DNA from: Betaproteobacteria bacterium
GTDB taxonomy: Bacteria; Pseudomonadota; Gammaproteobacteria; Burkholderiales; SG8-39
Direction: 5' to 3'
DNA length: 64,000 nt
NCBI GenBank assembly: GCA_022340285.1
Contig: JAJDOG010000002.1
Location: 84,881-148,880, forward strand
Position numbers and translations under genes: made by a program. The notes below the pieces were generated by a model. That model worked only from the letters and a program-made list of their open reading frames with translations, was not told the origin of the DNA and searched no databases. Within the stretch, counting starts at the first letter, position 1. Every line of letters starts with the position of its first letter. Shown here one piece after another: positions 2,617 to 38,969 of this stretch.

Positions 2617-2699
2617 TCACGAACCACCCCGCCCGCTACGCGGGCACCCCTCCTTGAAAAGGAGGGGATAGAAAACAATCTCAGCTCATAGGAGACACG

Positions 2700-16251: not shown

Positions 16252-16282
16252 CTCGCGAACTGGCCAGGTTCTTCAGGCGAAA

Positions 16283-16343
16283 AGGCGGAACGTAACGTAC
16301 AGGAGGAAACCGGCTGGTTTCCTCCCGTAACCTTCCTTCCCGC
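16283..16343. repeat. Solo copy of the SD/anti-SD hairpin repeat (same family as the array at 37729..37890)
   Basis: GGAACGTAACGTACAGGAGGAAACCGGCTGGTTTCCTCCCGTAACCTTCCTTCCCG aligns with unit 3 of the 37.8-kb array. 10-bp stem GGAGGAAACC/GGTTTCCTCC. It lies between convergent genes. Confidence 0.8.
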
Positions 16344-16357
16344 TAAAGAACGCGCTT

Positions 16358-37262: not shown

Positions 37263-37445
37263 ATGGCCCGACCCCTGTCCCCGCAAGAAGCAACCGAAAT
37301 GATCATGGCGTTGCGGCGCCAGCAACCGGGTGCACCGTCCTACCGGTCGACGCCGAGCCGGCGCGGAAGACGCTCCGACTCCAAGACCGCCAAGACGAAC
37401 CAACCCGCCGCCGAAACCACACGCGAAACCGAGACCGAGGAGTGA
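37263..37445 (+). CDS. Small (60 aa) basic/low-complexity protein translationally coupled to the IF-1 paralogue
   Basis: GGAGG lies 7 nt before the ATG at 37263. The stop is 4 nt before the infA-like ATG, and the infA ribosome-binding site (GAGGAG) sits inside its 3' end. No recognisable domain. Confidence 0.45.
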
Positions 37446-37449
37446 CCGC

Positions 37450-37719
37450 ATGGCAAAAGAACAGCTGCTGGAGATGGACGGGACCGTTATCGACGCGCTG
37501 CCGAACGCACAGTTCCGGGTCAAGCTCGACAACGGTGCCGAGCTGATCAGCTATGCGAACGGCAAGATGCGCAAGTTTCGCATCCGCATCCTGCCGGGCG
37601 ACCGCGTCAAGGTCGAGCTCTCGCCCTACGATCTGACCCGTGCGCGGATCAGCTTCAGGTACCGCGATACGGGGACGCGACGGGAAGCCGCCAGTGGCGT
37701 CACGTCCGCGGCTTCCTGA
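37450..37719 (+). CDS. infA: Translation initiation factor IF-1 paralogue with a 17-aa C-terminal extension
   Basis: [63 protein letters not shown] is the IF-1 S1 fold. It is 89 aa, against the usual 72 or so. Confidence 0.9.
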
Positions 37720-37728
37720 GAGGAAAGA

Positions 37729-37890
37729 ACAAAACCGGAACGTTATGAACAGGAGGAAACCGCCTGGTTTCCTCAAAGACAAACCCGGAACGGTACGAAC
37801 AGGAGGAACCCGCCTGGTTTCCTCAATGACAAACCCGGAACGGTACGAACAGGAGGAAACCGCCTGGTTTCCTCCCGTTACCCTCCTTCC
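37729..37890. repeat. Tandem array of three 50-bp units, each with an SD/anti-SD hairpin
   Basis: Units start at 37729, 37779 and 37829: ACAAA(A/C)CCGGAACG(T/G)TA(T/C)GAACAGGAGGAA(A/C)CCGCCTGGTTTCCTC. Stem GAGGAAACC/GGTTTCCTC with loop GCCT. Unit 3 carries the tail CCGTTACCCTCCTTCCCGG. Confidence 0.9.
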
Positions 37891-37902
37891 CGGTGCGAGT
37901 AG

Positions 37903-37930
37903 ACCCCGCTGAGGCGGGGTTTGTTTTTTT
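37903..37930 (+). terminator. Rho-independent terminator after infA and the repeat array
   Basis: Stem CCCCGC/GCGGGG followed by TTTGTTTTTTT. Confidence 0.8.
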
Positions 37931-37943
37931 GCGGACCTCTACA

Positions 37944-38969
37944 ATGCCGGTCATGGATGAGCCGCCGTACGCGAATCTCACGCCGGATCGCGTGCTCGAT
38001 GCGCTGGAGAGTGTCGGACAGCTCGGCGACGGTCGGCTGCTCGCCTTGAACAGCTACGAGAATCGCGTCTACCAGGTCTATCTCGAGGAAGGCGCGCCGG
38101 TCGTCGCAAAGTTCTACCGACCGGGACGGTGGACCGACGCAGCAATTGTCGAGGAGCACCAATACACCTTGGAGCTCTCCGGGCTCGAGATTCCGGTGGT
38201 CGCGCCCCTCGTGATCCAGGACAGCACGCTCCACGAGTTCGAAGGTTTCCGGTTTGCCGTGTACCCGCGCCGCGGCGGGCGCGTGCCCGAACTGGACGTT
38301 TCGCAGACACTCGAGTGGATCGGCCGGTTCATCGGGCGCATCCACGCGGTCGGCGCGGTGCGGCCCTTCGTTCACCGGCCGGCGCTCGACATCGCGAGCT
38401 TCGGTGAAGAGCCACGCGATTTTCTCCTCTCCCAGGGCTGGATCCCGGCGGAGTTGACGGATGCCTACACGAGCGTCGTCAGCATGGCGCTCGATGGCGT
38501 GCGTCGCTGCTTCGAGCGTGCCGGAACGGTGGCGACACTACGCCTGCACGGCGATTGCCACGCGGGGAATATTCTCTGGACCGAGCCCCAGGCGGCGCGG
38601 GGATCGGAGGGCGCTCCGACCGGCGGCCCGCATTTCGTGGATTTCGACGACTGTCGCACCGGCCCGGCGGTGCAGGACTTGTGGATGCTTCTATCCGGGG
38701 AGCGCGCGGAGATGGCGCAACAGCTCGCCGACGTGCTGGCGGGATACGAAGATTTTCGTGAGCTCGATCCGCGCGAGCTCCACCTTGTGGAAGCGCTGAG
38801 AACGCTGCGCCTGATCCACTACACGGCGTGGCTCGCGAGACGCTGGGGCGACCCGGCCTTTCCCGCCGCATTTCCATGGTTCAACACGCAGCGTTACTGG
38901 CAGGACCGGATCCTGGAGCTGCGCGAGCAGATCCCGGCAATGGAAGAGCCGCCGCTCCCCCATCCGTGA
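37944..38969 (+). CDS. srkA: Stress-response serine/threonine kinase SrkA (YihE/RdoA family)
   Basis: It has LNSYENRVYQV, the catalytic motif HGDCHAGNILW, and FVDFDD. The ATG at 37953 is an alternative start. Confidence 0.9.
   Translation: MPVMDEPPYANLTPDRVLDALESVGQLGDGRLLALNSYENRVYQVYLEEGAPVVAKFYRPGRWTDAAIVEEHQYTLELSGLEIPVVAPLVIQDSTLHEFEGFRFAVYPRRGGRVPELDVSQTLEWIGRFIGRIHAVGAVRPFVHRPALDIASFGEEPRDFLLSQGWIPAELTDAYTSVVSMALDGVRRCFERAGTVATLRLHGDCHAGNILWTEPQAARGSEGAPTGGPHFVDFDDCRTGPAVQDLWMLLSGERAEMAQQLADVLAGYEDFRELDPRELHLVEALRTLRLIHYTAWLARRWGDPAFPAAFPWFNTQRYWQDRILELREQIPAMEEPPLPHP

Follow-up and report, generated by a model that had tools for sequence, protein, structure and literature searches.

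Our results demonstrate that the hairpin array downstream of a gene for an initiation factor IF-1 paralog (infA) is a short intergenic repeat, here designated F1, expanded locally in tandem; F1 occurs at about 59 sites in the genome of this uncultured member of the Burkholderiales. The array lies within a 64,000-nucleotide stretch of that genome, referred to below as the window. F1 matches known dispersed repeats (PMC3337134, PMC3686654, PMC2229807) in its form and location, in its copy number and clustering, and in its restriction to a lineage and its turnover, and it is therefore probably a REP/BIME-like or MITE-like element, with the infA array being a variable-number tandem repeat (VNTR) that arose by unequal recombination or slippage.

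The window contains one tandem array, which TRF places at positions 37724 to 37874 with a period of 50, 3.0 copies, 93% matches, and 0 indels. Direct reading resolves it into three head-to-tail units of 50 bp, each with an A-rich head (AAAGACAAACCCGGAACGGTACGAAC) and a 9- to 10-bp AGGAGGAAACC/GGTTTCCTCC hairpin. Three such units behind the IF-1 paralog had been described in a preliminary description of this DNA, and both approaches confirm them. Unit 1 (37724..37778, + strand; TRF, nhmmer model positions 3-46, and direct reading) consists of a head and a hairpin without a tail, the hairpin being formed by GAGGAAACC (37753-37761), GCCT, and GGTTTCCTC (37766-37774). Unit 2 (37779..37828, + strand; TRF, nhmmer, and direct reading) likewise has no tail, and its hairpin (37803-37811/37816-37824) carries a single A>C mismatch at 37809. 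Unit 3 (37829..37894, + strand; direct reading and an nhmmer match of 69 bits over model positions 3-66) is a complete element, with a head, a 10-bp hairpin (GGAGGAAACC, 37852-37861, and GGTTTCCTCC, 37866-37875), and the conserved tail CGTTACCCTCCTTCCCGG (37876-37893). The CCCGTTACCCTCCTTCCCGG tail is thus present in the last unit only. The predicted RNA fold of the array has an energy of -86.1 kcal/mol (z = -3.47), and none of 200 shuffled sequences folded as well.

The array begins 5 nt past the stop codon of the IF-1 family gene (37450..37719, + strand), in its 3' UTR, and the gene is not part of the repeat. The gene encodes a protein of 89 amino acids (Pfam PF01176, eIF-1a/IF-1; E = 1.6e-23), was also called by a codon-usage gene finder, and is also called in 8 other assemblies. 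The protein carries a 17-residue C-terminal extension. A short basic open reading frame (37263-37445, + strand) ends 4 nt upstream of the IF-1 paralog gene and corresponds to a 48- or 60-amino-acid gene call in other assemblies of the lineage. Nine nucleotides beyond the array, a hairpin resembling an intrinsic terminator and distinct from the repeat is found (37903..37930, + strand). It reads ACCCCGC-TGAG-GCGGGGT followed by TTGTTTTTTT, which gives a 7-bp GC stem, a 4-nt loop, and 9 T residues in 10 nt. A consensus terminator scan left this hairpin unflagged; the call is based on direct reading, on its formation in the minimum free energy RNA fold, and on the conservation of the hairpin and its T-run at the orthologous locus in three related genomes (G001, G004, and G005). 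On these grounds, the placement of the array between the stop codon of the IF-1 paralog and an intrinsic terminator, as first described, is upheld. The F1 hairpin itself is followed by CCGUUACCCUCCUUCCC, with no U-run, and does not show the GC hairpin with an immediate U-run of an intrinsic terminator. Further downstream lies a gene for an APH-family phosphotransferase (kinase) (37944..38969, + strand; Pfam PF01636, E = 2.9e-32), given here for context.

The preliminary description had proposed that copies be counted across the whole genome together with their contexts. A BLAST search followed by an nhmmer profile search of the whole assembly, a 4.37-Mb metagenome-assembled genome (MAG) of 120 contigs (G000), identified 73 F1 units at 59 sites, among which those on contigs C68 and C73 represent one locus at contig ends. 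The sites comprise 46 solo copies, 12 direct doublets, and 1 direct triplet, the infA array being the sole three-unit site. Fifty-eight units carry the tail; the other 15 lack it, and each of these occupies an internal position in an array. An inverted partner is found nearby at only about 6 of the 59 sites. The copies on C68 (5622-5684) and C73 (3107-3169), each at a contig end, are identical, as are their flanks. Breaks in the assembly occur at or near F1 repeats, and contigs L191, L193, and L194 also end within the infA array.

A solo complete copy of F1 is present in the window at 16280..16344 (+ strand), in a convergent gap with a NIPSNAP-family gene upstream and a D-Glu cyclase family gene downstream. 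Of the 9 strain-level contigs shown, 7 have a called downstream gene, and in each of them the gap is 106 nt long; in the remaining 2 this gene is not called. A solo copy between convergent genes had been noted previously at 16283-16343; the copy is real, and the flanks that it was said to share with the array are part of the element itself. Dispersal, which had been proposed from these two loci, extends to all 59 sites.

The F1 element is approximately 65 nt long and consists of a variable A-rich head (..GCGGAAGGTTACGAAC), a hairpin of 10 to 13 bp with the consensus AGGAGGRAACC-loop-GGTTYCCTCC, and a 20-nt tail (CGTTACCCTCCTTCCCGC); the family consensus is ..AAAAGCGGAAGGTTACGAACAGGAGGAAACCGGCTGGTTTCCTCCCGTTACCCTCCTTCCCGCT. 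An alignment of 106 distinct copies, drawn from four genomes, shows the central stem to be paired in 92 to 99% of copies, with compensatory changes at column pairs 26:45 (A-T in 78 copies, G-C in 18) and 29:42 (A-T in 61, G-C in 37). The predicted mean energy of the hairpin is -19 +/- 4.3 kcal/mol. The ends of F1 form a short inverted repeat, GCGGAAGG ... CCTTCCCGC, that pairs in 72 to 95% of copies without compensation. An outer closing helix, GGAAGG/CCTTCC, was considered and not accepted, as it is paired in 72 to 95% of copies with zero compensatory changes. No Rfam family reached its gathering score in the window, the best subthreshold match having 20.3 bits against a required 45. The tail is the best-conserved part of F1. 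The 20-nt nonpalindromic tail and the ACGAAC head are 90 to 99% conserved across species whose coding DNA is only about 77 to 86% identical, and selection on a function could equally fit this conservation.

The preliminary description had raised the speculation that the array is a ribosome or anti-Shine-Dalgarno (anti-SD) decoy with a role specific to an initiation factor gene. F1 would then titrate 30S subunits or pair with SD sequences and be specially linked to infA. AGGAGG occurs in the 5' arm of F1, and CCUCCUU, the core sequence of the canonical 3' end of 16S rRNA, occurs in its tail. In predicted ensembles the tail is about half free, with a mean unpaired probability of 0.46. For AGGAGG the corresponding value is 0.17, which indicates that the SD-like motif is sequestered in the hairpin. 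Tail column 56 (T/C) also correlates with stem column 26 (A/G), with A-T in 77 copies, G-C in 15, G-T in 7, and A-C in 2. We examined this three-way tail-stem covariation as possible evidence of pairing and rejected it: the correlation is real but confounded, since the same copies share loop and 3'-end subfamily variants, and subfamily descent explains it as well as pairing does. The MAG contains no 16S gene with whose own tail F1 could be compared. F1 follows dozens of unrelated genes, infA accounting for 1 of the 59 sites, and neither its orientation nor its copy number is conserved (see below). A decoy, or any role specific to the initiation factor gene, is therefore highly improbable. Slightly less so, though still quite improbable, is a combination in which F1 has been spread or maintained without a REP-associated tyrosine transposase (RAYT) and its CCUCCUU tail has an RNA-level role, for example as an anti-SD mimic or as a 3'-UTR module bound by ribosomes or by a protein, the covariation then reflecting alternative pairing rather than subfamily descent.

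The repeated CAGGAGG in tandem hairpins also recalls the tandem GGA hairpins of CsrA/RsmA-type sponges such as CsrB or RsmY/Z, and a weak match to RsmY was obtained (E = 0.084). This match covers the terminator hairpin only (37901-37922), and its 15.9 bits compare with a gathering score of 57. The GGA of F1 lies in the stem and not in the loop, and at most sites F1 occurs as one unit in the 3' UTR of an ordinary gene. We thus rejected a CsrA sponge, which is extremely improbable.

The location of F1 was analyzed against the gene calls of a custom codon-usage gene finder (4,034 genes). Coding sequence makes up 90.7% of the genome, and all sites are intergenic. Convergent gaps hold 27 sites versus 5.4 expected, codirectional gaps 28 versus 35.2, and divergent gaps 2 versus 16.4 (chi-square P = 2e-22). 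F1 starts at a median of 26.5 nt past the upstream stop codon. In the codirectional gaps of G000, the element is in the sense orientation at 21 sites and antisense at 7 (two-sided binomial P = 0.0125), which hints at some transcript-level constraint. This raises the possibility that F1 is a selected RNA-level module of 3' UTRs, whose hairpin and tail confer stability on the 3' end of the mRNA or attract an RNase or an RNA-binding protein, as has been shown for some REP and ERIC copies. The proximity to stop codons and the sense bias in G000 agree with such a module, as do the predicted stability of the hairpin with its compensatory changes and the conservation of the single-stranded flanks. 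The infA array lies between stop codon and terminator and therefore would be transcribed. Some F1 copies, however, are situated downstream and not upstream of a terminator, and the comparison between species and strains speaks further against this explanation.

F1 is present in 5 of the 6 other genomes assigned to the same genus by GTDB, and all 34 genomes examined from other genera of the family and order lack it; the same-genus genome without F1 is G003. A search of 185,579 species genomes for an exact 28-mer spanning the 3' arm and tail yielded only 4 other MAGs, all labeled Burkholderiales bacterium or uncultured beta proteobacterium. With 59 intergenic sites, restriction to one genus, and a bias toward gene 3' ends, the earlier designation of a dispersed REP-like family is borne out. 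Two of the genomes, G002 and G006, have arrays in which the whole F1 unit, tail included, is repeated up to about 10 times. Two arrays in G002 (C11:903176-903794 and C1:2074273-2074606 [L036]) contain about 7 to 10 units including the tail, with a period of about 56 to 63 nt, a different loop (CCCACCCGGG), and a GCGGGGGGAA linker.

Using flanking coding sequence, we traced 24 other G000 sites in G001, G004, and G005. Among the total of 50 orthologous gaps, F1 has the same orientation in 25, is flipped in 12, and is missing in 13. The corresponding numbers are 6, 0, and 5 for G005; 13, 5, and 1 for G004; and 6, 7, and 7 for G001, so that flips rise with divergence, from 0 in G005 to 5 in G004 and 7 in G001. 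The number of units at orthologous gaps also differs among genomes. Flips between sense and antisense occur at 5 orthologous codirectional gaps, and the pooled sense-to-antisense ratio in such gaps is 18:16 over the four genomes. The sense bias of G000 is therefore not conserved. Together with the loss of the element from 13 of the 50 gaps and the variation in unit number among strains with identical infA described below, this makes a selected 3'-UTR module unlikely.

Copies at orthologous positions are 83.7% similar and those at nonorthologous positions 81.2%, and the remainder of the gaps cannot be aligned. Orthologous copies are thus barely more alike than others, and a single consensus is therefore maintained for all F1 copies, be it through selection, conversion, or turnover from master copies. 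Neither an excision nor a clean insertion with a target-site duplication was seen in these gaps, whose divergence between species is too great for such a duplication to be defined.

The gap between infA and the kinase gene contains 3 units in G000, about 2.5 in G005, 1 in G004, and about 0.5, a half-hairpin remnant, in G001, and the repeats are followed by the same terminator in all four genomes. In G001 (C10 [L126], about 1340-1395), the half-hairpin remnant in the infA 3' UTR is preceded by an unrelated 13-nt tandem repeat, CACGTAAGGCAAC, present four times. Strains were compared using metagenome contigs that encode an identical IF-1 protein. Three units are found in the window and in L188, and two units in L187, L189, L190, and L192. 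In L187, the infA DNA is 100% identical and the first of the two units is a unit 1/unit 2 recombinant; the other three two-unit contigs show 97.8% identity. The two-unit strains have either unit 1 or unit 2 missing. Since unit number varies and a two-unit form is a unit 1/unit 2 recombinant, we interpret the infA array as a VNTR produced by unequal recombination or slippage. Its unit number is polymorphic between close strains (3 versus 2), as in a VNTR or minisatellite. An array variable in close relatives was also among the things that the preliminary description had named as counting against a role in the 3' UTR of the initiation factor gene, and that role finds no support here.

A RAYT encoded elsewhere in the genome had been suggested as a possible partner of the repeat. 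The search for such an enzyme was negative in this genome and in 4 of the 5 F1-bearing sister genomes. No match to the Y1 family (PF01797) was found in the F1-bearing genomes G000, G001, G004, and G006. Y1 matches in G005 are an IS200-type TnpA and one 300-amino-acid COG1943-like open reading frame, and that in G002 is a split gene; no F1 copy lies within about 1.5 kb of the Y1 genes of G005 or G002. IS110 and TnpB-type genes are also absent from G000, and IS110 or TnpB/Cas12f-like proteins were rejected as mobilizers, as they do not co-occur with F1 among the genomes. Because Y1/RAYT, IS110, and TnpB-type genes are all absent from G000, which is 100% complete as judged by marker genes, we assign no mobilizing enzyme to F1.

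At two loci of G000 (C97:173072-173093 and C50:23547-23570), the F1 head is joined directly to the tail, with the junctions AACGTTAC|CCTCCTTCCCG and GGGTAC|CCTCCTTCCCGCTG. What is missing is exactly the 35-nt hairpin module between two CGTTAC direct repeats, and these loci could be deletion footprints or empty sites. The two cases without the 35-nt hairpin show microhomology of 5 to 6 bp. IS608-like targeting of TTAC, which the direct CGTTAC repeats flanking the hairpin could suggest, was not adopted: there is no Y1 enzyme, and deletion by slippage explains the pattern equally well.

A second, more abundant repeat, F2, is present in 168 oriented copies genome-wide, one of them in the window (2620..2670, - strand; direct reading and genome census). 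It has the form CCCCTCCTTTTCAAGGAGGGG-TG-[variable GC stem-loop]-GGGGTGGTT, its stem-loop shows compensatory changes, and, as in REPINs, its copies are often paired in inverted orientation at a distance of about 25 nt. The center of F2, GGTGG plus a palindrome, resembles a classical REP head, in a genome without a RAYT gene. F2 is found within 150 nt downstream of F1 and in the same orientation at 14 of the 59 F1 sites (about 1.8 expected) and upstream at none. In other F1 copies the 3' side is extended by a conserved sequence (AACTGAACACCGCGAAT..), which flips whenever the element does. The combination of F1 with F2 or with the 3' extension in fixed polarity is a BIME-like mosaic organization. 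At the site 16 gap in G001 (L170) and the site 7 gap in G005 (L152), which hold F1 elsewhere, F2 or a CCCGCTGTCGCGGGAATGAC-type palindrome is found instead. The same few gaps are landing pads shared by several families of repeats.

BIMEs bind IHF, gyrase, and Pol I. F1 might similarly be a DNA-level host site, at which a chromosomal protein binds or which serves in processing or recombination, selected whatever its orientation. A function independent of orientation fits the flips, and the single consensus of all copies across species, the conserved nonpalindromic tail, and the fixed-polarity association with F2 are also compatible with it. Yet there is no candidate protein, 13 of the 50 sites are empty in sister species, tandem copy number is unconstrained, and G003, of the same genus, is wholly without F1. 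We regard such a site as distinctly unlikely, somewhat more so than a 3'-UTR module, and favor a REP/BIME-like or MITE-like repeat.

The systems closest to F1 are the REP/BIME elements of Enterobacteria and the REP-REPIN/RAYT systems of Pseudomonas and Stenotrophomonas (PMC3337134, PMC3116915, PMC3686654). Like F1, REP/BIME elements are short GC-rich imperfect palindromes that are strictly extragenic, are present in tens of copies or more, and are situated at gene 3' ends. They are likewise lineage specific, vertically inherited, and kept near a consensus, and they occur as singlets, tandem clusters, and mosaics with other motifs. In the broad sense of REP, F1 has the stem-loop palindrome (a compensated stem of 10 to 13 bp), the many dispersed extragenic copies (73 units at 59 sites), and the enrichment at gene 3' ends with avoidance of divergent gaps. 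In contrast to REP-RAYT systems, F1 occurs without a RAYT in this genome and in 4 of 5 F1-bearing sister genomes. REP sequences have a conserved GT(A/G)G directly 5' of the palindrome (PMC3686654), whereas this head is not conserved in F1, which reads GGAAGGT, GGAACGT, or GGTAGGT; column 11 is a T in only about a fifth of copies, and the motif is 6 to 8 nt from the foot of the stem. The replicating unit of REP sequences, the REPIN, is an inverted doublet (PMC3337134), whereas F1 occurs mostly as singlets or direct tandems. The best-conserved part of F1, unlike in REP, is a 20-nt nonpalindromic tail. None of the three defining features of REP-RAYT systems that were tested (a cognate RAYT, a GTAG head, and an inverted REPIN doublet) is found in F1, and we therefore classify it as REP-like in the broad sense only.

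F1 can also be compared with MITE-like small mobile sequences such as ERIC, Correia/NEMIS, RUP, BOX, and YPAL (PMC2229807, PMC10969869). These are noncoding, shorter than 200 bp, stem-loop forming, and intergenic, as is F1, and the short inverted repeat at the ends of F1 may be a further likeness. MITE-like elements are often cotranscribed with the upstream gene, and some affect mRNA stability (PMC2229807, PMC10969869). In the diverged gaps around F1, no TA or other target-site duplication was discerned, and no related insertion sequence with matching termini was found in G000, where Y1, IS110, and TnpB-type transposase genes were looked for. F1 differs in being GC-rich rather than AT-rich, and at approximately 65 nt it lies at the small end of the size range. 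The infA array resembles the MIRU/VNTR loci of mycobacteria, which are intergenic tandem units of 40 to 100 bp whose number varies among strains. MIRUs are located inside operons, often in frame with overlapping stop and start codons. In contrast, the 50-bp F1 unit is not a multiple of 3, and the hairpin element is mostly dispersed as single copies.

We propose that F1 persists in a restricted number of permissive gaps behind genes, at their 3' ends, where it is gained, lost, and reoriented on the timescale of species divergence. It is kept near one consensus across species and often lies in fixed polarity beside F2, in a BIME-like mosaic. Some enzyme, or gene conversion, may mobilize or homogenize the element now or may have done so once. 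Unequal recombination or replication slippage between units would have given rise to the infA triplet. In transcripts, hairpins of -19 kcal/mol would at most hinder 3' exonucleases incidentally, at a point upstream of the real terminator, and a generic effect of the predicted hairpin on mRNA 3' ends is possible.

The meaning of these results is mainly one of annotation, in that a striking array turns out to be one expanded copy of a genus-specific intergenic repeat. The suggested link of the array to translation initiation is thereby removed. F1 and F2, held to consensus across an uncultured Burkholderiales genus without a detectable RAYT, provide a test case for the persistence of such repeats, and the infA array is a ready-made VNTR for strain typing of this lineage in metagenomes.
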